Position numbers and translations under genes: made by a program. From Eledone cirrhosa (Eukaryota), in NCBI GenBank assembly GCA_964016885.1, contig OZ024762.1:2604001-2668000 (forward strand): 64,000 bases of DNA, written 5' to 3'. Below the pieces are notes generated by a model. It did no database searches. It was not told the origin of the DNA and worked only from the letters and a program-made list of their open reading frames with translations. This document shows positions 1 to 44,009 of the stretch, piece after piece (position 1 is the stretch's first letter; the number at the start of each line of letters is the position of its first letter).

Positions 1-3000
1 AAGACAAACTTTGTAGGTAAGACAAACTTTGTAAGACAAACTTTGTAGGTAAGACAAACTTTGTAAGACAAAGTTTGTAGGTAAGACAAACTTTGTAAGA
101 CAAAGTTTGTAGGTAAGACAAACTTTGTAAGACAAACTTTGTAAGACAAACTTTGTAGGTATGACAAACTTTGTAGGTAAGACAAACTTTGTAGGTATGA
201 CAAACTTTGTAGGTATGACAAACTTTGTAGGTATGACAAACTTTGTAAGACAAAGTTTGTAGGTATGACAAACTTTGTAGGTATGACAAACTTTGTAAGA
301 CAAACTTTGTAGGTAAGACAAACTTTGTAAGACAAAGTTTGTAGGTAAGACAAACTTTGTAAGACAAAGTTTGTAGGTATGACAAACTTTGTAAGACAAA
401 CTTTGTAGGTAAGACAAACTTTGTAAGACAAACTTTGTAGGTAAGACAAACTTTGTAAGACAAACTTTGTAGGTAAGACAAACTTTGTAAGACAAAGTTT
501 GTAGGTAAGACAAACTTTGTAAGACAAAGTTTGTAGGTAAGACAAACTTTGTAAGACAAACTTTGTAAGACAAAGTTTGTAGGTAAGACAAACTTTGTAA
601 GACAAAGTTTGTAGGTAAGACAAACTTTGTAAGACAAAGTTTGTAGGTATGACAAACTTTGTAAGACAAAGTTTGTAGGTAAGACAAACTTTGTAAGACA
701 AAGTTTGTAGGTAAGACAAACTTTGTAAGACAAAGTTTGTAGGTATGACAAACTTTGTAAGACAAAGTTTGTAGGTAAGACAAAGTTTGTAGGTAAGACA
801 AACTTTGTAGGTAAGACAAAGTTTGTAAGACAAAGTTTGTAGGTAAGACAAAGTTTGTAGGTAAGACAAACTTTGTAGGTAAGACAAAGTTTGTAAGACA
901 AAGTTTGTAGGTAAGACAAAGTTTGTAAGACAAAGTTTGTAGGTAAGACAAAGTTTGTAAGACAAAGTTTGTAGGTATGACAAACTTTCTAAGACAAAGT
1001 TTGTAGGTAAGACAAAGTTTGTAGGTAAGACAAACTTTGTAGGTAAAACAAAGTTTGTAAGACAAAGTTTGTAGGTAAGACAAAGTTTGTAGGTAAGACA
1101 AAGTTTGTAAGACAAAGTTTGTAGGTATGACAAACTTTGTAAGACAAAGTTTGTAGGTAAGACAAAGTTTGTAGGTAAGACAAACTTTGTAGGTAAGACA
1201 AAGTTTGTAAGACAAAGTTTGTAGGTAAGACAAAGTTTGTAGGTAAGACAAAGTTTGTAAGACAAAGTTTGTAGGTAAGACAAAGTTTGTAGGTAAGACA
1301 AACTTTGTAAGACAAAGTTTGTAAGACAAACCTTGTAGGTAAGACAGACTTTGTAGGTAAGACAAAGTTTGTAAGACAAAGTTTGTAGGTAAGACAAAGT
1401 TTGTAGGTAAGACAAAGTTTGTAGGTAAGACAAAGTTTGTAAGACAAAGTTTGTAGGTAAGACAAAGTTTGTAGGTATGACAAACTTTGTAAGACAAAGT
1501 TTGTAAGACAAACTTTGTAGGTAAGACAGACTTTGTAGGTAAGACAAAGTTTGTAAGACAAAGTTTGTAGGTATGACAAACTTTGTAAGACGAAGTTTGT
1601 AAGACAAACTTTGTAGGTAAGACAGACTTTGTAGGTAAGACAAAGTTTGTAAGACAAACTTTGTAAGACAAACTTTGTAGGTAAGACAAAGTTTGTAGGT
1701 AAGACAAAGTTTGTAGGTAAGACAAAGTTTGTAAGACAAAGTTTGTAGGTAAGACAAAGTTTGTAGGTAAGACAAAGTTTGTAAGACAAAGTTTGTAGGT
1801 AAGACAAAGTTTGTAGGTAAGACAAAGTTTGTAGGTATGACAAACTTTGTAAGACAAAGTTTGTAAGACAAACTTTGTAGGTAAGACAGACTTTGTAGGT
1901 AAGACAAAGTTTGTAAGACAAAGTTTGTAGGTAAGACAAACTTTGTAAGACGAAGTTTGTAAGACAAACTTTGTAGGTAAGACAGACTTTGTAGGTAAGA
2001 CAAAGTTTGTAAGACAAACTTTGTAAGACAAACTTTGTAGGTAAGACAAAGTTTGTAGGTAAGACAAAGTTTGTAGGTAAGACAAAGTTTGTAGGTAAGA
2101 CAAAGTTTGTAAGACAAAGTTTGTAGGTAAGACAAAGTTTGTAAGACAAAGTTTGTAGGTAAGACAAAGTTTGTAGGTAAGACAAAGTTTGTAGGTATGA
2201 CAAACATTGTAAGACAAAGTTTGTAAGACAAACTTTGTAGGTAAGACAGACTTTGTAGGTAAGACAAAGTTTGTAAGACAAACTTTGTAGGTAAGACAAA
2301 CTTTGTAAGACGAAGTTTGTAAGACAAACTTTGTAGGTAAGACAGACTTTGTAGGTAAGACAAAGTTTGTAAGACAATCTTTGTAAGACAAACTTTGTAG
2401 GTAAGACAAAGTTTGTAGGTAAGACAAAGTTTGTAGGTAAGACAAACTCTGTAGGTAAGACAAACTTTGTAGGTAAGACAAACTTTGTAGGTAAGACAAA
2501 GTTTGTAAGACAAACTTTGTAGGTAAGACAAAGTTTGTAGGTAAGACAAAGTTTGTAAGACGAAGTTTGTAAGACAAACTTTGTAGGTAAGACAAAGTTT
2601 GTAAGACAAAGTTTGTAGGTAAGAAAAAGTTTGTAGGTAAGACAAAGTTTGTAGGTAAGACAAAGTTTGTAAGACAAAGTTTGTAGGTAAGACAAAGTTT
2701 GTAGGTAAGACAAAGTTTGTAGGTATGACAAACTTTGTAAGACAAAGTTTGTAAGACAAACTTTGTAGGTAAGACAGACTTTGTAGGTAAGACAAAGTTT
2801 GTAAGACAAAGTTTGTAGGTAAGACAAACTTTGTAAGACAAACTTTGTAGGTAAGACAAACTTTGTAAGACAAACTTTGTAGGTAAGACAAACTTTGTAA
2901 GACAAACTTTGTAGGTATGACAAACTTTGTAGGTAAAACAAACTTTGTAAGACAAACTTTGTAGGTAAGACAAACTTTGTAAGACAAAGTTTGTAGGTAA

Positions 3001-6000
3001 GACAAACTTTGTAGGTAAGACAAACTTTGTAAGACAAAGTTTGTAGGTATGACAAACTTTGTAGGTAAAACAAACTTTGTAAGACAAACTTTGTAGGTAA
3101 GACAAACTTTGTAAGACAAACTTTGTAGGTAAGACAAAGTTTGTAAGACAAAGTTTGTAGGTAAGACAAAGTTTGTAGGTAAGACAAACTTTGTAGGTAA
3201 GACAAAGTTTGTAAGACAAAGTTTGTAGGTAAGACAAAGTTTGTAAGACAAAGTTTGTAGGTAAGACAAAGTTTGTAAGACAAAGTTTGTAGGTATGACA
3301 AACTTTCTAAGACAAAGTTTGTAGGTAAGACAAAGTTTGTAGGTAAGACAAACTTTGTAGGTAAAACAAAGTTTGTAAGACAAAGTTTGTAGGTAAGACA
3401 AAGTTTGTAGGTAAGACAAAGTTTGTAAGACAAAGTTTGTAGGTATGACAAACTTTGTAAGACAAAGTTTGTAGGTAAGACAAAGTTTGTAGGTAAGACA
3501 AACTTTGTAGGTAAGACAAAGTTTGTAAGACAAAGTTTGTAGGTAAGACAAAGTTTGTAGGTAAGACAAAGTTTGTAAGACAAAGTTTGTAGGTAAGACA
3601 AAGTTTGTAGGTAAGACAAACTTTGTAAGACAAAGTTTGTAAGACAAACCTTGTAGGTAAGACAGACTTTGTAGGTAAGACAAAGTTTGTAAGACAAAGT
3701 TTGTAGGTAAGACAAAGTTTGTAGGTAAGACAAAGTTTGTAGGTAAGACAAAGTTTGTAAGACAAAGTTTGTAGGTAAGACAAAGTTTGTAGGTATGACA
3801 AACTTTGTAAGACAAAGTTTGTAAGACAAACTTTGTAGGTAAGACAGACTTTGTAGGTAAGACAAAGTTTGTAAGACAAAGTTTGTAGGTATGACAAACT
3901 TTGTAAGACGAAGTTTGTAAGACAAACTTTGTAGGTAAGACAGACTTTGTAGGTAAGACAAAGTTTGTAAGACAAACTTTGTAAGACAAACTTTGTAGGT
4001 AAGACAAAGTTTGTAGGTAAGACAAAGTTTGTAGGTAAGACAAAGTTTGTAAGACAAAGTTTGTAGGTAAGACAAAGTTTGTAGGTAAGACAAAGTTTGT
4101 AAGACAAAGTTTGTAGGTAAGACAAAGTTTGTAGGTAAGACAAAGTTTGTAGGTATGACAAACTTTGTAAGACAAAGTTTGTAAGACAAACTTTGTAGGT
4201 AAGACAGACTTTGTAGGTAAGACAAAGTTTGTAAGACAAAGTTTGTAGGTAAGACAAACTTTGTAAGACGAAGTTTGTAAGACAAACTTTGTAGGTAAGA
4301 CAGACTTTGTAGGTAAGACAAAGTTTGTAAGACAAACTTTGTAAGACAAACTTTGTAGGTAAGACAAAGTTTGTAGGTAAGACAAAGTTTGTAGGTAAGA
4401 CAAAGTTTGTAGGTAAGACAAAGTTTGTAAGACAAAGTTTGTAGGTAAGACAAAGTTTGTAAGACAAAGTTTGTAGGTAAGACAAAGTTTGTAGGTAAGA
4501 CAAAGTTTGTAGGTATGACAAACATTGTAAGACAAAGTTTGTAAGACAAACTTTGTAGGTAAGACAGACTTTGTAGGTAAGACAAAGTTTGTAAGACAAA
4601 CTTTGTAGGTAAGACAAACTTTGTAAGACGAAGTTTGTAAGACAAACTTTGTAGGTAAGACAGACTTTGTAGGTAAGACAAAGTTTGTAAGACAATCTTT
4701 GTAAGACAAACTTTGTAGGTAAGACAAAGTTTGTAGGTAAGACAAAGTTTGTAGGTAAGACAAACTCTGTAGGTAAGACAAACTTTGTAGGTAAGACAAA
4801 CTTTGTAGGTAAGACAAAGTTTGTAAGACAAACTTTGTAGGTAAGACAAAGTTTGTAGGTAAGACAAAGTTTGTAAGACGAAGTTTGTAAGACAAACTTT
4901 GTAGGTAAGACAAAGTTTGTAAGACAAAGTTTGTAGGTAAGAAAAAGTTTGTAGGTAAGACAAAGTTTGTAGGTAAGACAAAGTTTGTAAGACAAAGTTT
5001 GTAGGTAAGACAAAGTTTGTAGGTAAGACAAAGTTTGTAGGTATGACAAACTTTGTAAGACAAAGTTTGTAAGACAAACTTTGTAGGTAAGACAGACTTT
5101 GTAGGTAAGACAAAGTTTGTAAGACAAAGTTTGTAGGTAAGACAAACTTTGTAAGACAAACTTTGTAGGTAAGACAAACTTTGTAAGACAAACTTTGTAG
5201 GTAAGACAAACTTTGTAAGACAAACTTTGTAGGTATGACAAACTTTGTAGGTAAAACAAACTTTGTAAGACAAACTTTGTAGGTAAGACAAACTTTGTAA
5301 GACAAAGTTTGTAGGTAAGACAAACTTTGTAGGTAAGACAAACTTTGTAAGACAAAGTTTGTAGGTATGACAAACTTTGTAGGTAAAACAAACTTTGTAA
5401 GACAAACTTTGTAGGTAAGACAAACTTTGTAAGACAAACTTTGTAGGTAAGACAAACTTTGTAAGACAAAGTTTGTAGGTATGACAAACTTTGTAGGTAA
5501 GACAAACTTTGTAAGACAAACTTTGTAGGTAAGACAAACTTTGTAAGACAAACTTTGTAGGTAAGACAAACTTTGTAAGACAAACTTTGTAGGTAAGACA
5601 AACTTTGTAAGACAAAGTTTGTAGGTATGACAAACTTTGTAGGTAAGACAAACTTTGTAAGACAAACTTTGTAGGTAAGACAAACTTTGTAAGACAAAGT
5701 TTGTAGGTAAGACAAACTTTGTAAGACAAACTTTGTAGGTAAGACAAACTTTGTAAGACAAAGTTTGTAGGTAAGACAAACTTTGTAAGACAAAGTTTGT
5801 AGGTAAGACAAACTTTGTAAGACAAACTTTGTAGGTAAGACAAACTTTGTAGGTAAGACAAACTTTGTAAGACAAAGTTTGTAGGTATGACAAACTTTGT
5901 AGGTAAGACAAACTTTGTAAGACAAACTTTGTAGGTAAGACAAACTTTGTAAGACAAACTTTGTAGGTAAGACAAACTTTGTAAGACAAACTTTGTAGGT

Positions 6001-9000
6001 ATTACAAACTTTGTAAGCCAAAGTTTGTAGGTAAGACAAACTTTGTAAGACAAAGTTTGTAGGTATGACAAACTTTGTAAGACAAACTTTGTAGGTATGA
6101 CAAACTTTGTAGGTAAGACAAAGTTTGTAGGTATGACAAACTTTGTAAGACAAAGTTTGTAGGTAAGACAAACTTTGTAAGACAAAGTTTGTAGGTATGA
6201 CAAATTTGTAAGACAAACTTTGTAGGTATGACAAACTTTGTAAGACAAACTTTGTAGGTATGACAAACTTTGTAGGTAAGACAAAGTTTGTAGGTATGAC
6301 AAACTTTGTAAGACAAAGTTTGTAGGTAAGACAAACTTTGTAAGACAAAGTTTGTAGGTATGACAAACTTTGTAGGTATGACAAACTTTGTAGGTAAGAC
6401 AAAGTTTGTAGGTATGACATACTTTGTAAGACAAAGTTTGTAGGTAAGACAAACTTTGTAAGACAAAGTTTGTAGGTATGACAAACTTTGTAAGACAAAC
6501 TTTGTAGGTATGACAAACTTTGTAGGTAAGACAAACTTTGTAGGTATGACAAACTTTGTAGGTATGACAAACTTTGTAGGTATGACAAACTTTGTAAGAC
6601 AAAGTTTGTAGGTATGACAAACTTTGTAGGTATGACAAACTTTGTAGGTATGACAAACTTTGTAGGTATGACAAACTTTGTAAGACAAAGTTTGTAGGTA
6701 TGACAAAGTTTGTAAGACAAAGTTTGTAGGTATTACAAACTTTGTAGGTATGACAAACTTTGTAAGACAAAGTTTGTAGGTATGACAAACTTTGTAAGAC
6801 AAAGTTTGTAGGTATGACAAACTTTGTAGGTATGACAAACTTTGTAAGACAAACTTTGTAGGTAAGACAAACTTTGTAAGACAAAGTTTGTAGGTAAGAC
6901 AAACTTTGTAGGTAAGACAAAGTTTGTAAGACAAAGTTTGTAGGTATGACAAACTTTGTAGGTATGACAAACTTTGTAAGACAAAGTTTGTAGGTAAGAC
7001 AAACTTTGTAAGACAAACTTTGTAATACAAAGTTTGTAAGACAAAGTTTGTAGGTAAGACAAACTTTGTAGGTAAGACAAACTTTGTAAGACAAACTTTG
7101 TAGGTAAGACAAACTTTGTAAGACAAAGTTTGTAGGTAAGACAAACTTTGTAAGACAAAGTTTGTAGGTAAGACAAACTTTGTAAGACAAACTTTGTAAG
7201 ACAAACTTTGTAGGTATGACAAACTTTGTAGGTAAGACAAACTTTGTAGGTATGACAAACTTTGTAGGTATGACAAACTTTGTAGGTATGACAAACTTTG
7301 TAAGACAAAGTTTGTAGGTATGACAAACTTTGTAGGTATGACAAACTTTGTAAGACAAACTTTGTAGGTAAGACAAACTTTGTAAGACAAAGTTTGTAGG
7401 TAAGACAAACTTTGTAAGACAAAGTTTGTAGGTATGACAAACTTTGTAAGACAAACTTTGTAGGTAAGACAAACTTTGTAAGACAAACTTTGTAGGTAAG
7501 ACAAACTTTGTAAGACAAACTTTGTAGGTAAGACAAACTTTGTAAGACAAAGTTTGTAGGTAAGACAAACTTTGTAAGACAAAGTTTGTAGGTAAGACAA
7601 ACTTTGTAAGACAAACTTTGTAAGACAAAGTTTGTAGGTAAGACAAACTTTGTAAGACAAAGTTTGTAGGTAAGACAAACTTTGTAAGACAAAGTTTGTA
7701 GGTATGACAAACTTTGTAAGACAAACTTTGTAGGTAAGACAAACTTTGTAAGACAAAGTTTGTAGGTAAGACAAACTTTGTAAGACAAAGTTTGTAGGTA
7801 TGACAAACTTTGTAAGACAAAGTTTGTAGGTAAGACAAAGTTTGTAGGTAAGACAAACTTTGTAGGTAAGACAAAGTTTGTAAGACAAAGTTTGTAGGTA
7901 AGACAAAGTTTGTAGGTAAGACAAACTTTGTAGGTAAGACAAAGTTTGTAAGACAAAGTTTGTAGGTAAGACAAAGTTTGTAAGACAAAGTTTGTAGGTA
8001 AGACAAAGTTTGTAAGACAAAGTTTGTAGGTATGACAAACTTTGTAAGACAAAGTTTGTAGGTAAGACAAAGTTTGTAGGTAAGACAAACTTTGTAGGTA
8101 AAACAAAGTTTGTAAGACAAAGTTTGTAGGTAAGACAAAGTTTGTAGGTAAGACAAAGTTTGTAAGACAAAGTTTGTAGGTATGACAAACTTTGTAAGAC
8201 AAAGTTTGTAGGTAAGACAAAGTTTGTAGGTAAGACAAACTTTGTAGGTAAGACAAAGTTTGTAAGACAAAGTTTGTAGGTAAGACAAAGTTTGTAGGTA
8301 AGACAAAGTTTGTAAGACAAAGTTTGTAGGTAAGACAAAGTTTGTAGGTAAGACAAACTTTGTAAGACAAAGTTTGTAAGACAAACCTTGTAGGTAAGAC
8401 AGACTTTGTAGGTAAGACAAAGTTTGTAAGACAAAGTTTGTAGGTAAGACAAAGTTTGTAGGTAAGACAAAGTTTGTAGGTAAGACAAAGTTTGTAAGAC
8501 AAAGTTTGTAGGTAAGACAAAGTTTGTAGGTATGACAAACTTTGTAAGACAAAGTTTGTAAGACAAACTTTGTAGGTAAGACAGACTTTGTAGGTAAGAC
8601 AAAGTTTGTAAGACAAAGTTTGTAGGTATGACAAACTTTGTAAGACGAAGTTTGTAAGACAAACTTTGTAGGTAAGACAGACTTTGTAGGTAAGACAAAG
8701 TTTGTAAGACAAACTTTGTAAGACAAACTTTGTAGGTAAGACAAAGTTTGTAGGTAAGACAAAGTTTGTAGGTAAGACAAAGTTTGTAAGACAAAGTTTG
8801 TAGGTAAGACAAAGTTTGTAGGTAAGACAAAGTTTGTAAGACAAAGTTTGTAGGTAAGACAAAGTTTGTAGGTAAGACAAAGTTTGTAGGTATGACAAAC
8901 TTTGTAAGACAAAGTTTGTAAGACAAACTTTGTAGGTAAGACAGACTTTGTAGGTAAGACAAAGTTTGTAAGACAAAGTTTGTAGGTAAGACAAACTTTG

Positions 9001-12000
9001 TAAGACGAAGTTTGTAAGACAAACTTTGTAGGTAAGACAGACTTTGTAGGTAAGACAAAGTTTGTAAGACAAACTTTGTAAGACAAACTTTGTAGGTAAG
9101 ACAAAGTTTGTAGGTAAGACAAAGTTTGTAGGTAAGACAAAGTTTGTAGGTAAGACAAAGTTTGTAAGACAAAGTTTGTAGGTAAGACAAAGTTTGTAAG
9201 ACAAAGTTTGTAGGTAAGACAAAGTTTGTAGGTAAGACAAAGTTTGTAGGTATGACAAACATTGTAAGACAAAGTTTGTAAGACAAACTTTGTAGGTAAG
9301 ACAGACTTTGTAGGTAAGACAAAGTTTGTAAGACAAACTTTGTAGGTAAGACAAACTTTGTAAGACGAAGTTTGTAAGACAAACTTTGTAGGTAAGACAG
9401 ACTTTGTAGGTAAGACAAAGTTTGTAAGACAATCTTTGTAAGACAAACTTTGTAGGTAAGACAAAGTTTGTAGGTAAGACAAAGTTTGTAGGTAAGACAA
9501 ACTCTGTAGGTAAGACAAACTTTGTAGGTAAGACAAACTTTGTAGGTAAGACAAAGTTTGTAAGACAAAGTTTGTAAGACAAACTTTGTAGGTAAGACAA
9601 AGTTTGTAGGTAAGACAAAGTTTGTAAGACGAAGTTTGTAAGACAAACTTTGTAGGTAAGACAAAGTTTGTAAGACAAAGTTTGTAGGTAAGAAAAAGTT
9701 TGTAGGTAAGACAAAGTTTGTAGGTAAGACAAAGTTTGTAAGACAAAGTTTGTAGGTAAGACAAAGTTTGTAGGTAAGACAAAGTTTGTAGGTATGACAA
9801 ACTTTGTAAGACAAAGTTTGTAAGACAAACTTTGTAGGTAAGACAGACTTTGTAGGTAAGACAAAGTTTGTAAGACAAAGTTTGTAGGTATGACAAACTT
9901 TGTAAGACGAAGTTTGTAAGACAAACTTTGTAGGTAAGACAGACTTTGTAGGTAAGACAAAGTTTGTAAGACAAACTTTGTAAGACAAACTTTGTAGGTA
10001 AGACAAAGTTTGTAGGTAAGACAAAGTTTGTAGGTAAGACAAAGTTTGTAAGACAAAGTTTGTAGGTAAGACAAAGTTTGTAGGTAAGACAAAGTTTGTA
10101 AGACAAAGTTTGTAGGTAAGACAAAGTTTGTAGGTAAGACAAAGTTTGTAGGTATGACAAACTTTGTAAGACAAAGTTTGTAAGACAAACTTTGTAGGTA
10201 AGACAGACTTTGTAGGTAAGACAAAGTTTGTAAGACAAAGTTTGTAGGTAAGACAAACTTTGTAAGACGAAGTTTGTAAGACAAACTTTGTAGGTAAGAC
10301 AGACTTTGTAGGTAAGACAAAGTTTGTAAGACAAACTTTGTAAGACAAACTTTGTAGGTAAGACAAAGTTTGTAGGTAAGACAAAGTTTGTAGGTAAGAC
10401 AAAGTTTGTAGGTAAGACAAAGTTTGTAAGACAAAGTTTGTAGGTAAGACAAAGTTTGTAGGTAAGACAAAGTTTGTAAGACAAAGTTTGTAGGTAAGAC
10501 AAAGTTTGTAGGTAAGACAAAGTTTGTAGGTATGACAAACATTGTAAGACAAAGTTTGTAAGACAAACTTTGTAGGTAAGACAGACTTTGTAGGTAAGAC
10601 AAAGTTTGTAAGACAAACTTTGTAGGTAAGACAAACTTTGTAAGACGAAGTTTGTAAGACAAACTTTGTAGGTAAGACAGACTTTGTAGGTAAGACAAAG
10701 TTTGTAAGACAAACTTTGTAGGTAAGACAAACTTTGTAGGTAAGACAAAGTTTGTAGGTAAGACAAACTTTGTAGGTAAGACAAACTTTGTAGGTAAGAC
10801 AAACTTTGTAGGTAAGACAAAGTTTGTAAGACAAAGTTTGTAAGACAAACTTTGTAGGTAATACAAAGTTTGTAGGTAAGACAAAGTTTGTAAGACGAAG
10901 TTTGTAAGACAAACTTTGTAGGTAAGACAAAGTTTGTAAGACAAAGTTTGTAGGTAAGACAAAGTTTGTAGGTAAGACAAAGTTTGTAGGTATGACAAAC
11001 TTTGTAAGACAAAGTTTGTAAGACAAACTTTGTAGGTAAGACAGACTTTGTAGGTAAGACAAAGTTTGTAAGACAAAGTTTGTAGGTAAGACAAACTTTG
11101 TAAGACGAAGTTTGTAAGACAAACTTTGTAGGTAAGACAGACTTTGTAGGTAAGACAAAGTTTGTAAGACAAACTTTGTAAGACAAACTTTGTAGGTAAG
11201 ACAAAGTTTGTAGGTAAGACAAAGTTTGTAGGTAAGACAAACTTTGTAGGTAAGACAAACTTTGTAGGTAAGACAAAGTTTGTAAGACAAAGTTTGTAAG
11301 ACAAACTTTGTAGGTAAGACAAAGTTTGTAAGACGAAGTTTGTAAGACAAACTTTGTAGGTAAGACAAACTTTGTAGTTAAGACAAACTTTGTAGGTAAG
11401 ACAAAGTTTGTAAGACAAACTTTGTAGGTAAGACAAAGTTTGTAAGCCGAAGTTTGTAAGACAAACTTTGTAGGTAAGACAAACTTTGTAGGTAAGACAA
11501 AGTTTGTAAGACGAAGTTTGTAAGACAAACTTTGTAGGTAAGACAAACTTTGTAGGTAAGACAAACTTTGTAGGTAAGACAAAGTTTGTAAGACAAAGTT
11601 TGTAAGACAAACTTTGTAGGTAAGACAAAGTTTGTAAGACGAAGTTTGTAAGACAAACTTTGTAGGTAAGACAAACTTTGTAGGTAAGACAAACTTTGTA
11701 GGTAAGACAAACTTTGTAGGTAAGACAAAGTTTGTAAGACAAACTTTGTAGGTAAGACAAAGTTTGTAAGACGAAGTTTGTAAGACAAACTTTGTAGGTA
11801 AGACAAACTTTGTAGGTAAGACAAAGTTTGTAAGACGAAGTTTGTAAGACAAACTTTGTAGGTAAGACAACCTTTGTAGGTAAGACAAACTTTGTAGGTA
11901 AGACAAAGTTTGTAAGACAAAGTTTGTAAGACAAAGTTTGTAAGACAAACTTTGTAGGTAAGACAAAGTTTGTAAGACGAAGTTTGTAAGACAAACTTTG

Positions 12001-12370
12001 TAGGTAAGACAAACTTTGTAGGTAAGACAAACTTTGTAGGTAAGACAAACTTTGTAGGTAAGACAAAGTTTGTAAGACAAAGTTTGTAAGACAAAGTTTG
12101 TAGGTAAGAGAAAGTTTGTAAGACAAAGTTTGTAGGTAAGACAAACTTTGTAAGACAAAGTTTGTAAGACAAAGTTTGTAGGTAAGACAAAGTTTGTAAG
12201 ACAAAGTTTGTAGGTAAGATAAAGTTTGTAAGACAAAGTTTGTAGGTAAGACAAAGTTTGTAAGACAAAGTTTGTAGGTAAGACAAAGTTTGTAAGACAA
12301 AGTTTGTAGGTAAGACAAAGTTTGTAGGTATGACAAAGTTTGTAGGTAAGATAAAGTTTGTAAGATAAAC
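1..12370. repeat. Satellite array of mixed 14-bp (AAGACAAASTTTGT) and 18-bp (AGGTAAGACAAASTTTGT / AGGTATGACAAACTTTGT) units with higher-order repeats; continues beyond window start
   Basis: Directly visible. Marker variant 'aaaccttgt' recurs at 1331, 3649 and 8386; 'gacagacttt' recurs at 1621, 1981 and 2341; position 1 onward matches 7056 onward. Array decays at ~12350-12370. Confidence 0.99.
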
Positions 12371-12544
12371 AACAATTTAGTTTATGTGTTCATGTGATCT
12401 GTAAAGACTCAGAGAAACCAGATTGAAGCTATTGTACTTACTTTGGTGTATTTACGTCTGACTCTTAACATCCTGTTATAATTGTAACAGGATAAATATG
12501 AGATTTGTCATATTGTCAATAAATGAACATAACAGAGAAGAAAC

Positions 12545-13454: not shown

Positions 13455-23043
<9,589 letters not shown>

Positions 23044-34675: not shown

Positions 34676-35434
34676 CCCTTCAACGTTTAAACCAGCCATA
34701 TCCGACCAGAATTCTCTCACCTCTTTCTGTTCAAACCGGCTGTAACTGGCCGCTCATACTGTTGTTAAGGTATTGTTCTCAAAATAAATAATATCAAATG
34801 TCATAGATTCGATATTATGTGAGATAATTGTGTAAGATAAAAATACCACAAAAATATAATAATAAATATAGAGTAATGTAAATGTTGTGAGATATTATGT
34901 GAGGTAAAGCCTTTACCATGAAAATACAATAATAAATATAGAGTAATGTAAATGTTGTGAGATATTATGTAAGGTAAAGCCTTTACTGTGAAAATACAAT
35001 AGTATATATAGAGTAATGTAAATGTTGTGAGATATTATGTGAGGTAAAGCCTTTACTGTGAAAATACAATGAGTAATGTAAATGTTGTGAGATATTATGT
35101 AAGGTAAAGCCTTTACTGTGAAAATACAATAGTATATATAGAGTAATGTAAATGTTGTGAGATATTATGTGAGGTAAAGCCTTTAGTGTGAAAATACAAT
35201 AGTATATATAGAGTAATGTAAATATTATGTGAGGTAAAGCCTTTACTGTGAAAATACAATAGTATATATAGAGTAATGTAAATGTTATGTGAGATATTAT
35301 GTGAGGTAAAGCCTTTACTGTGAAAATACAATAGTATATATAGAGTAATGTAAATGTTATGAGATATTATGTGAGGTAAAGCCTTTACTGTGAAAATACA
35401 ATAGTATATATAGAGTAATGTAAATACTAAAGGG
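34676..35434. mobile_element. piggyBac-like MITE with TTAA TSD, expanded internally by a ~70-bp tandem repeat
   Basis: TTAA-CCCTT...AAGGG-TTAA; GAGTAATGTAAATG at 34871, 34941, 35011, 35071, 35141 and onward. Confidence 0.88.
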
Positions 35435-36985: not shown

Positions 36986-37908
36986 CTATTTTTATTAATT
37001 AGAGAAGCTAAAAATATCCCCGTTTTTCCTACAGAAATCAATGTGCAATAAATTTATAGGTTACAACCATTTCTACTGGTGTTCTTCTCACTGAAAACAG
37101 TGGTTCCTCTTGTATTGTTGGTGGTGGTGGTGGTGGTGTGGTGGTGATGGTTGGAGGTGGTGTGGTGGTGTGGTGGTGTGGTGGTGTGGTGGTGATGGTT
37201 GGAGGTGGTGTTGCGGTAGTGTTGGTGATGGTTGGAGGTGGTGTTGTTGTGGTGGTGTGGTGGTGTTGCGGTAGTGTTGGTGTGGTGGTGATGGTTGGAG
37301 GTTGTGTTGTTGTGGTTGGTGATGGTGGTATGTTTGTGGTGGTGGTGGTGGTGTGGTGGTGTTGGTGTGGTGGTGATGGTTGGAGGTGGTGTTGTTGTGG
37401 TTGGTTGTGTTGTGTTGGTGGTGGTAGTGTTGTGGTGGTGGTGTTGGTGTGGTTGTTATTGGGTGTGGTGGTGTTGGTAGGGGTGTTGTTGGTAGAGATA
37501 GTAGTAGTGTTGTTGTTTATATCAGTTTTATCCTGCCACAATCAATAGAGATCTTGATAAATTTAGACAAAATATGTGTGTGTGTGTGTGTGTACATATT
37601 TGAGTGTATGTGTGTTTCTGTGTGTGTGTGTGTGTGTAGACGCTTGAGTGTATATGTTTCTCTGTGTGGGTGTGTGTGTAACCATCAACATCATTACCAC
37701 CACCACCACTATCACCACCACCATCATCATCATCACTATCACCACTATCACCACCACCATCATCATCATCACTATCACCACCACCAGCACATTACCATTG
37801 CCACCATTTTGTTTTATTTTATTTTTTTTAAATCACGATTCTAAAACTTTCTTTAATGTTTCTCTTTGATAGAAGGACTTCATCAGCCCAGAACTGCAAT
37901 ATGGTGCC

Positions 37909-40300
37909 ATGCTTCCATTCCATTCCATAATGCCATTCTTCTGGAAGTGGAATCGTAAACTGAAGCCGACGTTTGTCGCGCTTATATGCATCGGTGTTCT
38001 GCTTTTGTTGCGTAACTTGGCATTTGACAACAGCATCTACAGAAGCATCACACAGCAACAGAAGAAAGAGTATCAGCTGTTCTCGTCTTTCTATCGGATA
38101 CGAAATAGACTGAGGAGTCCGATCCAGTCGGCGGTTATTCGGTTAAATGACCTCGTTGTTTCCACCGTTCCAAACAAGACAGCCCGATCCAATGATATCG
38201 TCTGCCAACATCCAAAACTGGATCTGCAGACCGACACAAACAAAAACGCCTTCTATGACGTTGGGTCTATTCAGTGTTTCGGCTCCGAGATTTTCAGCAT
38301 GGAAAATGGGAAGTTGAAAATGGATAGATCTTTGCTTAATGGAGACCACATCAAACAGTGTACATATCAGGCAATAGAACGCATTGATGACAACTATGCA
38401 ACATATGCAGCACCTGTAGGTGGTGATGTGAATTATCCATTTAATCTTGTTATACAGAATGATTTTATCAGAGTTCAGTGCTTCCTTGAAACAAAAGATA
38501 CCACACAAGATTCAACGAGGCATCTCTTGTCTCTCTCCTCTCAATCAGGGCCAAAAAAAGACAGTGCTGTTAACTCCAAAGGCAGACTCCATCTTCACAA
38601 AAAACCGGTGTCAAACGCTAATAAATTTATTAGATATGAAGGTATGTCCAAACAGTCTGAAACGACAAATGCATCAAAGACTAGCAACGGTGATAAAGCC
38701 AACAGAAAAAGGTCTTTCACAAACTTAAAGGTTCACAAAAATAACTTATTGAATAATGCTTTAAAATTACCTAGAAATACTCCCCCCAAAATAGGCAACA
38801 AAATGGTGCGTTCTTCATTGAAAACGAATGATGATAGAATTGTTTCAAAGACGAAACATGGCGTGAAAGATATAAATAAATCCCCAACTAGAAATAAGCC
38901 CAGTTTATTGCTATCTACTGGACAAAGAGGTGAAAGGAATATCTATCAACATTTAGGTAATTTTAAATCAAGGAAAATAAATAACTCCACGTTGGGTATA
39001 TCTTTAAAAACAGCTTTTAGAACCTCTAATAAAATTTATAAAAACAATCATCCTATTGCTTCTATGAAGTCTAAATTTAATGGTAAATTCCGACAGCGTC
39101 TCGGTTCTATTTTCAATGGTGCTTTATCTCGAGACAAAAATGGTTCACAGTTAGCTAATATCACTTCACAAAAGACAAAGAAGAATACTCACCTAAATGT
39201 CCATTATTCTTCACTGAAGAAAATAGCGAACAATATATATTTCCGTAATTCAAATAACATTGCACAGCATAGAAAAATATCAAATAAAGTTACATACCAA
39301 GGCAATAAGGTTTTGCAACAAAACCACAACTACAGCCATTCCAAAGGCCCCAACCGATTCCTCAAATCTCCGGATATTATCAAATCTACACAAATGAATG
39401 CAAAAAATGTTAGTGGTTCTAGGAAAAAAAATAGCAGAATCTCTATGACTAAACAAAAATATTTACTTTTAAAGAACAGAGCTACAAAGCACATAATTCC
39501 TTCATCAAATGGTTCTCCCTTGCCAAAAATTAAATCTCCAAGTGATTTTGCTGAAGAGCAATCTTTATCTGAAAATGGTGAATCCCAAATTCCTCAGCTG
39601 CTGCTTCTCCCTACAATTTCCAAATTAAATTCTTTGATTTACCCTGAAAACCAAGACAGCCCCAAGAATCAAGACAAAGACATAGTAAATGTAAAATTCT
39701 TGAATACTCTGCCAATGAAATCTAAAACTCGATCTCGTCCAAATGATAGAATAATTTCTAAACAAGTTAGTTCACATCCAAAGATCGAAACTCTGAGACC
39801 AAACAATGCTCGTGCTAGATTCCTATACACACCAAAATCTAAAATCCTGCCAAATACTTTTCAAACTATTACGAAAAAAGTGAAAAAATTTAAGAAAAAT
39901 ACTGACAGAGAAATGAAGACACAAATTCTTCATAACTTTGACACCGGAGATATGATTGATTCCTTTTACTACGATAATTCTAAAGAAACTTATTTAAACC
40001 TACCCCCAGAAGAGTATGGTATTTACAACCAGCTCCCCGATATTGAACAGTTCTTTGTACAAATTTACCCGAAACCTGAGGTATTTCAACGTATATCAGA
40101 AACACCCCAGTTTGTTCATTTGAACACAATTCCACTGAATATTCTAATCTATGGACTTGATTCTTTGTCTCACCTGTCATTTCAACGTAAGCTACCTTTG
40201 TCATACAATCACTTGAAACATACTCTCGGTGCAGTCATAATGAATGGTTATAATATTGTAGGAGATGCCACAGCTGCAGCTATTATTCCACTTCTTACTG
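37909..40300 (+). CDS. DUF229 protein coding exon 1 (2392 nt, includes basic low-complexity insert)
   Basis: Long non-repetitive ORF; acceptor-like TTTGATAG at ~37872 upstream of ATG implies a non-coding upstream exon; CTG|GTAGGT donor. Confidence 0.9.
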
Positions 40301-40454
40301 GTAGGTCACAAGCGCTCTCTTTTGTTTTCATATTTTTTTCTCTTTTTATATTTCTTTTCATATTTTATAACTTTTTTTCAAGATCAGTATATATATCCGA
40401 TTGGATTTGTTAGCTTAGCTGCAGCTAGAGCTTTGATTATTCTCTACTTCCATT

Positions 40455-40489
<35 letters not shown>

Positions 40490-43400
40490 GTTTCTTTATT
40501 AGCCACAGGGGCACAAAAGAAGGGGACAAATACAAAGGGGGAAGTTTACATACAATAAAAACGTGTAAAATAATATCACAAATGCAATTTTAAAAAATTA
40601 GTCGATTTTCCCCAATAGGGGGAGACGGTTCATATGGGTAACACATACCCCTGAAAAAATGTGCAACCCTCATCTCCAGGAGTACGAAGAGTTTGTACCC
40701 CTTTGCTCTCTTCCTCTTTTTCCTCAACCTACATGCTGATATAGAGAGAAGGCCCATTCACTCGGGCCATTCTCGCCACTTTCACCCACCTTTCATAAAA
40801 CTTGCTGGGGTACTACTACTACTACTACTACTAACCCTACCCCTCCCTCATTCTTATTTCTTTATTTATTTTTTATTTATTTATTTTTCAGGAAGGACCG
40901 AAACTGAATTACCTGAAGTCCGTAAGAACCAACTTACTTCGGGATTTGTCGATGATTATCCTCTGGTGTGGAACAAGTTCCGTTCCAAAGGTTACGTTAC
41001 ATTGTTCGCTGAAGACTGCCCTAGCCTCGGTGTCTTTAATCTACGCTTCAATGGTTTTTACAATGCACCAACAGACCACTACATGCGACCTTTCTGGCAG
41101 GCCATCAGTGAATCTGTGCTGGACGAACGCAGCATCAACTTCTGTCTGGGTTCCAAACCGAAACATCAATTCACATTGGACTACGTCAAGGACTTTTTCC
41201 AGAAGTACGACAATGTTTCCAAGTTTGCGTTTGCTTTCCACGGAGAGTTGTCTCACAATGACAACAATCCAATACAATATCTGGACAAGGACCTGTTGTC
41301 CTTCTTACAGTCCATGGAGAAGGGAAACCACTTAAACAACACCTTGTTGATAGTCATGAGTGACCATGGAGCACGTTACAGCAACGTACGTAACACAGTT
41401 CAGGGCAAACTGGAGGAGCGTTTACCCTTCATGTCGTTTGTGTTCCCTAAATGGTTTCAGTCAAAATACTCATACTTTATGAAGAATCTGAAGGGCAACC
41501 AAGAGAGGCTGGTAACTCCGTTTGACGTCCACGAGATGATGTTGGACATCCTTGACTCGGCCCGTATGTTTGAACCCGTTGATTACTCTACTCGTGGTCT
41601 CAGTCTCTTGCAGCCAATCCCACTAAACCGGACATGCAAATCTGCCGGGATTGCCATGCACTGGTGTAGCTGCCTGTCGAGATACCCTGTTGATCCATCC
41701 AGCCAACTTGTTCGTACTTCCATCCAGAAGATTATGTCCTATATTAGGACTCTTCTGAAACCCGCCAAGCAATTCTGCGCTCAACTTTCACTGAAGAAGA
41801 TATTCTCGGTTTACCTCGTGTCCCCAAACGAGAAGGTTTGTAACACATTTAAATACCTTTCGTTACCATATTTCTGTTGAATGACGGACACGGACACGGA
41901 CGGACGGACGGACGGACGGACGGACGGACGGACGGACGGACGGACGGACGGAGTTGACGTCATCTCCGGCATCATAAACCTGACAGCCCCTCCCCCTCCA
42001 CGTCTGAATACAACCAGTTTCTTCCTCAGGAGAGAGAGAGAGAGAGATCTAGAGGAAGATTTGACCCCAGTACAACCGGTCAAACCCATGCCAACATAGT
42101 AAAAGAGATGTACAATGACAGGATGACTGAGCCCCTCTCCTGATCTGGACAGGGAGAGTCGACCCCAATATAAACGGTCGAACCCATTTCAGTATAGTAA
42201 ATCAGACGATGATGATGATTGCTTCTTGCTGACTCAGAAGCAGTGGGGGTGGTGGTGGTGGAGTGATGGGGGTGGGCGTAGGTTAGCAGTAGTATTGGTA
42301 GAGCGTTGGACAACATGCTTCGCGACATAGTGTTATGGCCCTTTATATTCTGAGCCTTTATAATAGCTCTGCCTTTCCTCGTTATGGGGTCAATAAAATA
42401 AAATCCCAGTTATTCACTGGGGTTGTTTGTATTGACCCCCCCCCCCCCGCCGCCTCTCGAAAATTGTAGGTCTTGTGCCTAAATCAGGAGCCATTATTAA
42501 TGGCGGTGGATTGGTAGGGATCGGTAGAGCGTCAGACGTGCTTTGCAGCATAGAGTTATGTCCCTTTTTGTTCTGTGTTCAAATTTCACTGAGATCAACT
42601 TTACCTTTTATGCTTACAAGGTCGATAAAATAAAGTACCAGTAATGCACTGGGGGTGATTTAATCGACTTTCCCTTTCCCCCCAAATTGCTGGCCTTATC
42701 CCTATACTAGAACTCATTATTATTATTTACATGTTATATATGTAAAGAAGGCACGTGGCTGAGTGGTTAGAGAATTGGATTGGCAATCTTGAGGTTGTGA
42801 GTTCGATTCCCGGACCGGGTGATGTATTATGTCCTTGAGCAAGACACTTTATTTCACGTTGCAACTGATAGATAGTATTAGCAATTGGAAAGACCAATGG
42901 AAACAGTTTCCCTGGTCTGATTCGTTAAGCAAATGAGGACTGGGATCTTGTCGATATATGTAAACCCCCCACTGTCCCTGTCTATTGTATTGTCCCCTAT
43001 ATGTAGGACCTTGTGGCCAATAAAGAAATCATAGTGGGAAGAAAACTGGAAGAGGGCACATGCCCTAGCGGTCAGAGTAACTGGCTTTTTTGTGGGCTTT
43101 CTCCATGAGCGACCCTCGGAAGTCTCCCCCCTATTGGAGAATTTTTCATTGTTTTCTTTTTTTGTTACATCCTCTGTTTTTGTATTTTTTACAAGCAGAA
43201 ATGCCCATTTGTACTGTCCTGTGTTGTCCTGTACCGTCCTGTGTTGTCCTGTATTGTCCTGTACCGTCCTGTGTTGTCCTGTACCGTCCTGTGTTGTCCT
43301 GTGTTGTCCTGTACCGTCCTGTGTTGTCCTGTACCGTCCTGTGTTGTCCTGTGTTGTCCTGTACCGTCCTGTGTTGTCCTGTACCGTCCTGTGTTGTCCT

Positions 43401-44009
43401 GTATTGTCCTGTACCGTCCTGTGTTGTCCTGTGTTGTCCTGTACCGTTCTGTGTTGTCCTGTATTGTCCTGTACCGTCCTGTGTTGTCCTGTACCGTCCT
43501 GTGTTGTCCTGTACCGTCCTGTGTTGTCCTGTACCGTCCTGTGTTGTCCTGTGTTGTCCTGTACCGTTCTGTGTTGTCCTGTGTTGTCCTGTATTGTCCT
43601 GTGTTGTCCTGTATTGTCCTGTGTTGTCCTGTATTGTCCTGTGTTGTCCTGTATTGTCCTGTACCATCCTTAATGTTATACTTTGTGTCAACTCTTGTGG
43701 TTAATAAAGAAAGCATTATTATTATTCTTCTAATTACAGGTCCTGAAATTCATCAGTTCCAAGGATCCTGATAACCGAATCGCTAACTTCAGTCGGCAGA
43801 CAATGTTGGACACCTTAAATTATCAACTGACCTTTCAGACGAACCCAAACGATGGCCTCTATGAAGCCAGTGTTAAGGTCAACCTTCAAAACCAAAATTT
43901 CCAGGTTTTCCCTGAAATCAGCCGCCTAAATAAATATGGAGACCAGCCAAATTGTATCAAAGAGAAATTCCCAGATCTTCGGAAGTACTGTTATTGTAAG
44001 AAGGTTTAG
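37909..44009 (+). CDS. DUF229-family protein (alkaline phosphatase/sulfatase superfamily), N-terminal signal anchor, ~1201 aa, 3 coding exons
   Basis: Exons 37909-40300, 40892-41835, 43740-44009 join in frame (phase 1, then 0). Motifs NILIYGLDSLS, FQRKLP, GYNIVGDAT, WNKF..GYVTLFAED, PTDHYMRPF, SHND, MSDHGAR, GKLEERLPF, LVTPFDVHE, RTC..AGI..HWCSC, ISRLNKYGDQ..C..LRKYCYC are typical of DUF229. Hydrophobic FVALICIGVLLLL near the N-terminus. Confidence 0.92.
40892..41835 (+). CDS. DUF229 protein coding exon 2 (catalytic core)
   Basis: TTTTTCAG acceptor; AAG|GTTTGT donor; SHND and SDHG metal-ligand motifs. Confidence 0.93.
42285..42865 (+). mobile_element. SINE cluster in DUF229 intron 2
   Basis: Two Meta-like SINE copies followed by a CORE-like SINE head. 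Confidence 0.75.
43210..43668. repeat. 10-bp minisatellite (GTGTTGTCCT / GTACCGTCCT / GTATTGTCCT)
   Basis: Directly visible, intronic. Confidence 0.97.
43740..44009 (+). CDS. DUF229 protein terminal exon (VLKFISSKD...LRKYCYCKKV*)
   Basis: TACAG acceptor; family-typical C-terminal SR..YG.Q..C...KYCYC; TAG stop. Confidence 0.9.
   Translation, partial: VLKFISSKDPDNRIANFSRQTMLDTLNYQLTFQTNPNDGLYEASVKVNLQNQNFQVFPEISRLNKYGDQPNCIKEKFPDLRKYCYCKKV

Follow-up and report, generated by a model that had tools for sequence, protein, structure and literature searches.

Intronic minisatellites that reiterate splice donors are the closest described counterparts of the locus studied here. In one set, which comprises the human 37-bp VNTR of F7 intron 7 and the repeats of 6-16, CBS, LAMIN B2 and PDGF, the exon-intron boundary falls inside the first monomer and the copy number is 5 to ~25 (PMC1557585). 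Two outcomes are described there: the F7 pseudo-sites did not compete with the real donor despite their higher complementarity to U1, whereas the human 6-16 and CBS repeats use proximal pseudo-sites. The 25-bp VNTR of ABCA7 intron 18, which includes the canonical donor, reaches 10,678 bp (about 427 units) in some alleles; its polymorphism and splicing effects have been measured, the latter comprising exon skipping and splicing at a cryptic donor that lies one unit into the repeat and leads to a premature stop (PMC5954066). Juxtaposed YAG/GT junctions (the slash marks the splice boundary) are also the hallmark of the ratchet points of recursive splicing in Drosophila (PMC6110457) and human (PMC10156609). 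Known points are sparse, an intron in flies holding at most seven, and they are conserved and backed by reads; with few exceptions, more than 1 kb separates one from the next.

Here we describe a 15-kb minisatellite of Eledone cirrhosa that occurs at a single locus, the second intron of an intact LEXM/CIMAP2 gene. From its observed position, size, unit structure and flanking duplicate, together with the intact frame and the colinear exon 2-exon 3 junction of its host, we infer both an origin and a mode of splicing: probably, the array arose from a ~100-bp duplication, its 535 donor-like copies are silent, and splicing takes out the intron as a single piece. A literature search, with most subscription journals outside its coverage, found no paper on this array.

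The host gene

The window, that is, the whole 64,000-nucleotide stretch of DNA analysed, begins inside the array. The exon at 13455, described in an earlier note on this DNA as opening at an acceptor without a Met, was seen again, and the discovery by homology of exons 1 and 2 upstream of the window (Table 1) bears out that note's placement of the repeat in an intron, on the sense strand of a LEXM-like gene. The ten exons join into an open reading frame of 1,200 nt (399 aa) with no internal stop, and the predicted protein is identical to the LEXM-like isoform X2 of Octopus sinensis at 223 of 399 residues. Homologs of the gene carry the names LEXM and CIMAP2, and full-length orthology assigns it to this family, which is marked by SHIPPO (PG-rich) repeats. 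When nine exons were searched singly, four gave PF07004 matches, all weak and below the cut-off; neither single-exon homolog searches nor searches of PDB and the Atlas yielded a match. In mammals, CIMAP2 is sperm-specific (PMC11779644).

Two possibilities concerning the gene itself were rejected. A missing micro-exon inside intron 2 is not indicated by the exon 2-exon 3 junction, which is colinear with the O. sinensis LEXM-like protein. Relaxed constraint on exons 2 and 3 is likewise not seen, their conservation (12/25 and 30/53 residues identical to O. sinensis, respectively) equalling that of the rest of the protein.

Table 1. Coordinates of the LEXM/CIMAP2 exons, the intron 2 array and its flanking copies; C23 denotes positions on the contig, the others are positions in the window
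Feature	Position	Strand	Remarks
LEXM/CIMAP2 exon 1 (ATG)	C23:2595978-2596045		upstream of window; by homology
LEXM/CIMAP2 exon 2	C23:2601222-2601297		upstream of window; by homology; phase 0, donor TCA/GTAAGT
Copy 1 of ~100-bp segment	C23:2601302-2601402		upstream of window
Minisatellite, in-window part	1..12369	+	total C23:2601399-2616369
Exact 2,346-bp repeat	793..5456	+	offset 2,318 (793 and 3111)
Copy 2 of ~100-bp segment	12360..12451	+	other flank of array
LEXM/CIMAP2 exon 3	13455..13613	+	starts at acceptor, without Met
LEXM/CIMAP2 exon 4	14272..14394	+	
LEXM/CIMAP2 exon 5	14739..14858	+	
LEXM/CIMAP2 exon 6	18045..18188	+	
LEXM/CIMAP2 exon 7	18678..18842	+	
LEXM/CIMAP2 exon 8	20989..21114	+	
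LEXM/CIMAP2 exon 9	22040..22164	+	
LEXM/CIMAP2 exon 10	22950..23043	+	coding part up to stop

Structure of the array and its genomic background

The more than 12 kb of repeat reported earlier for positions 1..12370 is present, but it belongs to a longer array of 14,971 bp that extends 2.6 kb beyond the upstream edge of the window, starts 105 nt after the exon-2 donor and occupies 93% of the 16,157-nt intron 2 on the sense strand; minus the array, the intron measures 1,186 nt. TRF reports a period of 18, 754.8 copies and 14% indels for window 1-12369. The whole array comprises 914 units (533 18-mers, 378 14-mers and three others), and the 750 units in the window divide into 441 18-mers, 303 14-mers lacking the AG and six of other lengths. 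The 18-mer is made of a donor-like 11-nt head and a 7-nt tail ending in TAG, while the 14-mer is the same unit minus its last 4 nt. Back-to-back TTTGTAG/GTAAGA motifs thus occur in hundreds of copies on the + strand, as the earlier note held, but not in every unit: the 535 AG/GT sites are borne by 18-mers only, which make up ~58% of the units. The words TTTGTAGGTAAGA and TTTGTAGGTATGA occur 354 and 77 times, respectively, in window 1-12375 and never in the remaining window. Across the 533 18-mers, columns T14-G18 and T2-A3 are invariant and the C and G cores, which define two variants that are reverse complements of each other, stand near 1:1 (272:261); GTATG, a variant that weakens the donor, has become established in 112 units.

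A 24-nt unit pattern searched genome-wide matched 367 times, always inside the array. It is hence a single-locus minisatellite rather than the satellite that it was first called, and an origin as a dispersed satellite family or from a mobile element was rejected on the same count. A 109-bp flank matched itself alone in a search that is insensitive at 79% identity, and an Rfam scan of L001, which excluded the window itself, gave no match. Multi-kilobase, locus-specific minisatellites are routine in the E. cirrhosa genome: 564 kb hold 90 complex minisatellites, 11 of them exceeding 1 kb. Tandem AGGTAAG arrays are also common genome-wide, a pattern of three AGGTAAG words giving 8,950 matches, of which 191 come from the LEXM/CIMAP2 array, against 5,735 for the control. 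With a stricter pattern pairing acceptor and donor, 14 matches at four loci were found outside the array (control, 19); the LEXM/CIMAP2 array, accounting for 282 of the 296 genome matches, is by far the largest of this motif class. At the four other loci, none of 104 motif-strand reading frames (203 frames listed) had a Pfam match that might name a host gene.

The array also contains larger repeats. The exact 2,346-bp repeat is enclosed in a ~7.06-kb block duplication (an upstream part versus 5130-9890). The blocks agree at 285 of 290 units and differ by four mismatched units and indels. An exact duplicate of this length at an offset of 2,318 could mean that part of the array is an assembly artefact and that the true array is shorter. 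We regard this as exceedingly unlikely: the region is free of N, both array ends join unique and related flanks, the 7-kb blocks differ from one another as a real recent duplication would, and the array would exceed 12 kb even minus the duplicate.

Origin of the unit

The two flanks of the array are copies of one ~100-bp segment. Copy 1 begins 4 nt past the real exon-2 donor and runs into the first AG/GT site, with which it ends; copy 2, its best non-self match within 164 kb, lies at the far end. They are identical at 70 of 89 aligned bases (79%), with an alignment score of 42 (the shared 11 nt excluded) that none of 2,000 shuffles reached (maximum 30). With its two parent copies still in place on either side, the array has an unusually legible origin. 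The array unit equals the first 11 plus the last 7 bases of the segment, which suggests that the splice-like motif was likely inherited from the junction of the duplication; the TAG tail is found in copy 1 and in the array and is absent from copy 2. In the scenario that we propose, the first ~100 bp of intron 2 would have been duplicated in tandem, and one copy would have collapsed between short similar words near both of its ends, leaving the 11-nt head joined to the 7-nt tail. A 4-nt slip may then have produced the 14-mer, and unequal exchange may have multiplied units as well as whole blocks (2.3 kb, 7 kb). Divergence among units (0.65% differences from the commonest letter, two common polymorphic columns excluded) is low against the 70/89 identity of the flanks, which points to an expansion younger than the duplication.

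The GTAAG of the unit can be traced to the real donor, where a GTAAG-TAAG run occurs, and selection need not be invoked to explain the splice-like motif. By chance, YAGGTRAG would appear on the given strand in a shuffled 18-mer of the unit's composition with P=0.0018, a value tempered by this local supply of GTAAG and by the many such arrays genome-wide. There is no sign of purifying selection on the motif within the array: the 18 distinct types of substitution include five in motif columns, against an expected share of 0.41 (p=0.18), a test of little power with 18 events. As to what drives expansion, hairpin formation was rejected as a general driver, folding and length being uncorrelated across 80 arrays (Spearman 0.07, p=0.56); the unit of this array folds well (z -3.0 versus shuffled units), and hairpin-driven expansion may apply here.

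Splicing of intron 2

The array sites differ from the nine real acceptors of the gene, a comparison of n=9 in which four DUF229-gene splice sites were left out of all counts. The pyrimidine fraction at -20..-4 averages 0.40 over the 535 array sites versus 0.59-0.88 for the real acceptors; an upstream AG lies within -30..-3 at all 535 array sites but at one of the nine; and a YTNAY branch motif accompanies one of 535 versus four of nine. A Y5+N0-4YAGGT filter, passed by one array site and three real acceptors, is a weak discriminator. The UUUGU tract is moreover predicted to be base-paired (unpaired 0.01 in the RNA fold), which agrees with the doubt about acceptor strength that the earlier note had raised over the short tract. 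With a pyrimidine tract this short and predicted to be paired, the AGs of the array would not serve as acceptors.

The recursive-splicing ladder proposed in that note fares poorly against these values. With 535 YAG/GT junctions on the sense strand, intron 2 might leave stepwise at one or a few of them, the best candidate being the first (+105 nt), where the pyrimidine fraction peaks at 0.65 and a CTAAC closely precedes the site. The CTAAC adenosine lies 9 nt from the 3' end, however, closer than is usual for U2 introns. Adjacent sites stand 18-68 nt apart in all 534 cases, which is below or near the minimal intron of ~60 nt (PMC3265369) and far below the >1-kb segments of flies (PMC6110457). 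A ratchet step would regenerate the donor TCA/GTAAGA, for which the U1 duplex calculation gives -4.5 versus -9.4 for the next array donor, and use of the latter would insert a stop or a frameshift, as do all 534 adjacent segments; among 5,534 site-to-site inserts of up to 300 nt, none is both in frame and stop-free. Nor is a ratchet needed for an array-free intron of 1,186 nt. Stepwise removal is thus very improbable; a literature search leaving most subscription journals outside its coverage did not find recursive splicing in cephalopods.

The donor halves are another matter. That the pre-mRNA would carry hundreds of donor-like sites matching U1 finds agreement in the calculated duplex, -9.4 kcal/mol for the array donor, whose 7-mer is predicted to be exposed (unpaired 0.85). 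The real exon-2 donor reaches -7.2 and is predicted to be paired (unpaired 0.004 in the equilibrium fold), and this counts against silence. Given this calculated advantage in U1 pairing over the real donor, some leaky use of the array donors is plausible. A fuller version, modelled on ABCA7, holds that the repeat arose by accident, that its first donors compete to give a stop-bearing transcript and that array length tunes the amount of protein. The first array donor (C23:2601402) would indeed extend exon 2 by 105 nt, in frame and open for 34 codons, ending exactly in the stop TAG, and the ABCA7 cryptic donor (PMC5954066) and the proximal pseudo-sites of 6-16 and CBS (PMC1557585) offer precedents. 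We nevertheless consider it unlikely, given that LEXM/CIMAP2 is intact with exons 2-3 not relaxed, and that the F7 pseudo-sites did not compete (PMC1557585). Were this or the ratchet reading true, the amount of a sperm-tail protein would be tied to a hypervariable repeat.

A further possibility is that the nascent intron forms long duplexes by way of the palindromic core of its units, presents AGGUAAG in loops and, as a U1 sink or nuclear RNA scaffold, binds many U1 particles or ADAR in spermatocytes. Its appeal lies in the sperm-specificity of mammalian CIMAP2 (PMC11779644), in the near 1:1 ratio of complementary cores and in a predicted fold that leaves the donor 7-mer open and the tract paired, with z=-11.0 versus dinucleotide shuffles. 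Any palindromic-unit repeat would fold likewise, so the z-score is no evidence of function, and we are dealing with a single locus of recent expansion that bears no signal of selection. The array contains no AATAAA or ATTAAA, leaving nothing to protect. Set against a cell's whole pool of U1, the intron of one gene could absorb little, and we give this reading very little credence. Quite improbable, too, is a composite in which the duplication built, at a stroke, a 105-nt mini-intron with AG/GT at its end, and the amplified junction forms a folded scaffold with 535 acceptor tracts buried in stems and 535 U1 sites exposed in loops; in spermatocytes, the first site would then serve as ratchet or poison donor, and array length would set the dose of the sperm-axoneme protein; if true, it would mean a repeat-built splicing dial and evidence of cephalopod recursive splicing.

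Under the reading that we favour, silent donors and one-step removal, the first donor after exon 2 would be chosen as in human F7, assuming that the behaviour transfers to molluscs. Besides the donor energies, the size of the array, by far the largest of its motif class, the invariant columns T14-G18 and T2-A3 and the absence of the TAG tail from copy 2 weigh against this reading. If it holds, the case would be extreme yet ordinary: 535 downstream donors with a better U1 match than the real one would be ignored, and the choice of the first donor could be tested cleanly on a natural locus beyond the mammals.

Comparison with known systems

Partial overlap with several systems is apparent. Like the introns of Drosophila Y-loop genes, intron 2 is filled with repeats and belongs to the gene of a sperm-axoneme protein, but the comparison, drawn in the earlier note, fails on scale, at 16 kb (16,157 nt) versus megabases (PMC6508621). 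The AGGT route of intron gain, also invoked there, shares the creation of AG/GT junctions by tandem duplication; it operates, however, on coding sequence inside exons and creates an additional intron (PMC3265369), whereas the LEXM/CIMAP2 duplication is wholly intronic and added none. With ratchet points (PMC6110457, PMC10156609) the array has in common sense-strand YAG/GT junctions within an intron. It differs in having 535 of them, 18-68 nt apart at 534 of 534 adjacent pairs (a measure that concerns adjacent sites), with weak acceptors that are poor in pyrimidines and almost never accompanied by a branch motif.

The closest fit is with the F7 and ABCA7 class. The array is a head-to-tail intronic minisatellite on the sense strand, beside a real donor; its unit goes back to the sequence next to that donor and reiterates a donor-like site. 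As in the F7-type repeats, donors are reiterated behind the real one and use of the first donor would keep the gene intact (PMC1557585), and as in ABCA7, a donor-bearing unit has enlarged the intron several-fold (PMC5954066). Unlike the F7-type repeats, it starts 105 nt inside the intron, runs to 914 units, adds YAG before the GT and probably stems from a duplicate of the donor-adjacent segment that collapsed; unlike the ABCA7 VNTR, it excludes the canonical donor, the real TCA/GTAAGT lying outside the array and TAG/GTAAGA being the donor repeated. Its copy number is 20 to 100 times that of the F7-type cases and, in terms of donor count, ~2x that of the longest ABCA7 allele. By analogy with these cases, the LEXM/CIMAP2 array likely works like a member of the F7/ABCA7 class, though not in the strict form.

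The array and its host intron

The tandem array occupying window 1-12369 (G000:C23:2604001-2668000, genome size 3.0 Gb) begins at C23:2601399 and spans 14,971 bp, with 914 units and 535 AG|GT sites. The earlier note had read it as 18-bp units that each carry an AG|GT junction. The array and its hundreds of sites are real, but only 441 of the 750 units parsed in the window are 18-mers, and these alone end in TAG and hence create an AG|GT where the following unit joins; 303 are 14-mers and 6 have other lengths. A 24-nt unit pattern searched genome-wide gave 367 matches, all 367 inside the array and none on the reverse strand. Read on the minus strand, window 1-12369 has stop-free frames as long as 4,478 codons; these are explained by the absence of stop codons from the unit in that direction and carry no coding evidence.

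A search with exon 3 retrieved a 402-aa relative (P0003), whose homologs, the Octopus sinensis isoform P0096 among them, go by the names LEXM or CIMAP2. The best named homolog suggests an octopod as the source of the DNA. Exons 1 and 2 are short and weak in tblastn taken alone (E 6.8 and 0.086).

Upstream exons of the LEXM/CIMAP2 gene
Feature	Position	Basis of placement
Exon 1	C23:2595978-2596045	homologs; splice signals, phase, full alignment
Exon 2	C23:2601222-2601297	homologs; splice signals, phase, full alignment

The ten joined exons encode 399 aa with no internal stops, identical to P0096 at 223 positions and colinear with it across the exon 2-exon 3 junction. With exons 1 and 2 thus found by homology upstream of the window, the array is intronic and on the sense strand, as had been proposed; it makes up 93% of intron 2 (16,157 nt), which without it would be 1,186 nt. 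In PMC11779644, mammalian CIMAP2 was detected in sperm axonemes only.

Elsewhere in the gene, exon 3 has lost its first PG-rich motif (window 13455-13484), which O. sinensis, P0003 and P0005-P0007 have; the loss involves no indel relative to O. sinensis. The intron 3 donor at window 13614, CAG|GTTTTT, is unusually weak (U1 duplex -5.6) and is backed by phase and homology. On the opposite strand, TAG|GTAAGT recurs in a 40-bp minisatellite that lies about 2.2 kb upstream of the LEXM ATG (L002:9580-9790 (-), G000:C23:2593568-2593791), with no adjoining exon seen. Downstream is a DUF229 (PF02995) gene (window ~37900-43990 (+); exon 40894-41835, E 1.1e-93), whose large first exon has, by eye, an apparent long low-similarity insert.

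Credible donors, non-credible acceptors

Donors were paired in calculation with the U1 5' end. The 406 array donors TAG|GTAAGA reach -9.4 kcal/mol, against -7.2 for the real exon-2 donor, while 109 TAG|GTATGA and 345 TTT|GTAAGA donors give -5.6 and -4.3 kcal/mol, respectively; the gene's own nine donors range from -3.2 to -12.3 kcal/mol. Set beside the latter, the modeled energies make the donor half of the motif credible and sustain the notion of U1-pairing sites in the hundreds. The first array donor might then act as a leaky poison donor beside the real one: the latter is predicted to be paired at equilibrium (unpaired 0.004), and use of the former would add to exon 2 a 105-nt stretch that closes with TAG. 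Such leaky use is therefore plausible, albeit rather improbable in our estimate.

The acceptor half, judged by its sequence, is not credible. The pyrimidine fraction of the 535 array acceptors averages 0.40 and peaks at 0.65 in the first of them, while the nine real acceptors span 0.59-0.88, in line with the doubt already voiced about acceptor use. An AG lies upstream in 535/535 array sites versus 1/9 real acceptors; YTNAY occurs in 1/535 versus 4/9, and the looser TNAY in 124/535 versus 5/9. The Y5+N0-4YAGGT filter for recursive sites, as worded in PMC10156609, is passed by 1/535 array sites, its acceptor part by only 3/9 real acceptors. The unit has a palindromic core, and strong folding is predicted for the array (z -11.0 as RNA, -12.5 as DNA); for the 58 sites of its first 3 kb, the predicted unpaired probability is 0.01 for the UUUGU tract and 0.85 for AGGUAAG. 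That the array serves as a U1 or ADAR scaffold we consider very unlikely.

The recursive-splicing ladder suggested in the earlier note is not supported by these comparisons. Besides having weak acceptors, the AG|GT sites lie 18-68 nt apart, and in-frame stop-free inserts arise from 0/534 adjacent segments and 0/5,534 site pairs within 300 nt. A ratchet step would regenerate the donor TCA|GTAAGA (U1 duplex -4.5), so that a ladder would tend to pass splicing to a stronger neighboring donor, inserting a stop. Recursive sites as described in PMC6110457 and PMC10156609 have acceptors and a spacing that the array lacks, and there is little chance that its AG|GT sites are used recursively.

A probable donor-derived origin

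The array is instead likely to be a neutral, donor-derived minisatellite whose origin is still legible. The 101 nt from 4 nt past the real donor to the first AG|GT (copy 1) resemble the ~92 nt directly after the array (copy 2), with 70/89 aligned bases identical. With 11 unit-shared nt removed, the local score is 42, equaled by 0/2,000 dinucleotide shuffles (maximum 30), and this is the top non-self match in 164 kb. The 18-mer equals the first 11 bases of the flanking segment plus a 7-base tail (TTTG as at the end of copy 2, TAG as at that of copy 1), and its GTAAG appears to be supplied by the GTAAG-TAAG of the real donor. Hence, the segment behind the real donor was probably duplicated, one duplicate probably collapsed internally, and the collapsed unit would then have been amplified. 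Units diverge by 0.65% (two polymorphic columns excluded) versus 21% between the flanks. Together with two longer internal repeats, one exact over 2,346 bp and the other a ~7.06-kb block (285/290 units matching), this points to recent unequal exchange. A partial assembly artefact seems very unlikely. The eight motif columns account for 5 of the 18 distinct types of substitution, against an expected share of 0.41 (p=0.18, a weak test), and the donor-weakening variant is present in 112 units.

Genomic background and other loci

The 564 kb around the locus hold 90 complex minisatellites, 11 of them >1 kb, this array being the largest. AGGTRAG occurs on either strand in 2/80 units (one family merged; one is this array) versus 1.0 expected, and YAGGTRAG in 2 of the same units versus 0.41. 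Genome-wide, three AGGTAAG within 5-30 nt match 8,950 times, and the reversed control 5,735 times. Of the 8,950, 191 come from this array, and among the matches listed at least 10 loci lie on one contig. The TTTNYAG|GTAAG pair gives 296 matches, 282 in this array and 14 at four other loci, versus 19 in the control; the array is therefore an outlier in size, and its motif class is not enriched.

Other repeats were seen in passing. Small, independent tandem arrays of a 60-72-bp unit lie at window 34851-35425 and ~10 other places in C23:2304001-2868000, which suggests one dispersed repeat that seeds minisatellites repeatedly. At C1:50102534-50170142 (L013-L016), 27-bp units that contain a palindrome form an array of ~68 kb, its ends read and its middle inferred from pattern matches; AG|GTAAG is a minority variant in the fetched ends (99 vs 658), and a 24-bp array of >8.4 kb lies 20 kb upstream. 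At C13:30805561-30806167 (-) (L062), 16 tandem 36-40-nt units joined as TTTACAG|GTRA each look like a whole mini-intron. A 20-nt stretch resembling a micro-exon, with a long T tract and a GTAAGT donor, precedes them by 276 nt; by sequence, this locus is more promising for piecewise splicing than the intron-2 array. A Pfam search of reading frames on the motif strand gave no host gene there. A single site at C2:33585081 (+) (L065), with a long pyrimidine tract and CAG joined directly to GTAAGT, fits a genuine ratchet point much better than any array site does, or else an exon of zero or very small length; a Pfam search of 6 kb on the (+) strand found no host gene for it.

Comparison with known systems

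The Y-loop likeness raised earlier falls away, as a 16,157-nt intron does not have the size of Y-loop introns given in PMC6508621. The array likewise departs from known recursive sites, as sampled in PMC6110457 and PMC10156609, in acceptor and spacing features. Closer relatives are the human F7, 6-16, CBS, LAMIN B2 and PDGF minisatellites, which reiterate donors behind a real donor; according to PMC1557585, splicing there uses just the first donor or the first few, and F7 pseudo-sites of higher U1 complementarity do not compete. Exon skipping and the use of a cryptic donor are seen with the ABCA7 intron-18 VNTR, of up to 10,678 bp (PMC5954066). By analogy, the present array would resemble the F7/ABCA7 type in reiterating a donor behind the real one, with the difference that here the real boundary lies outside the array.
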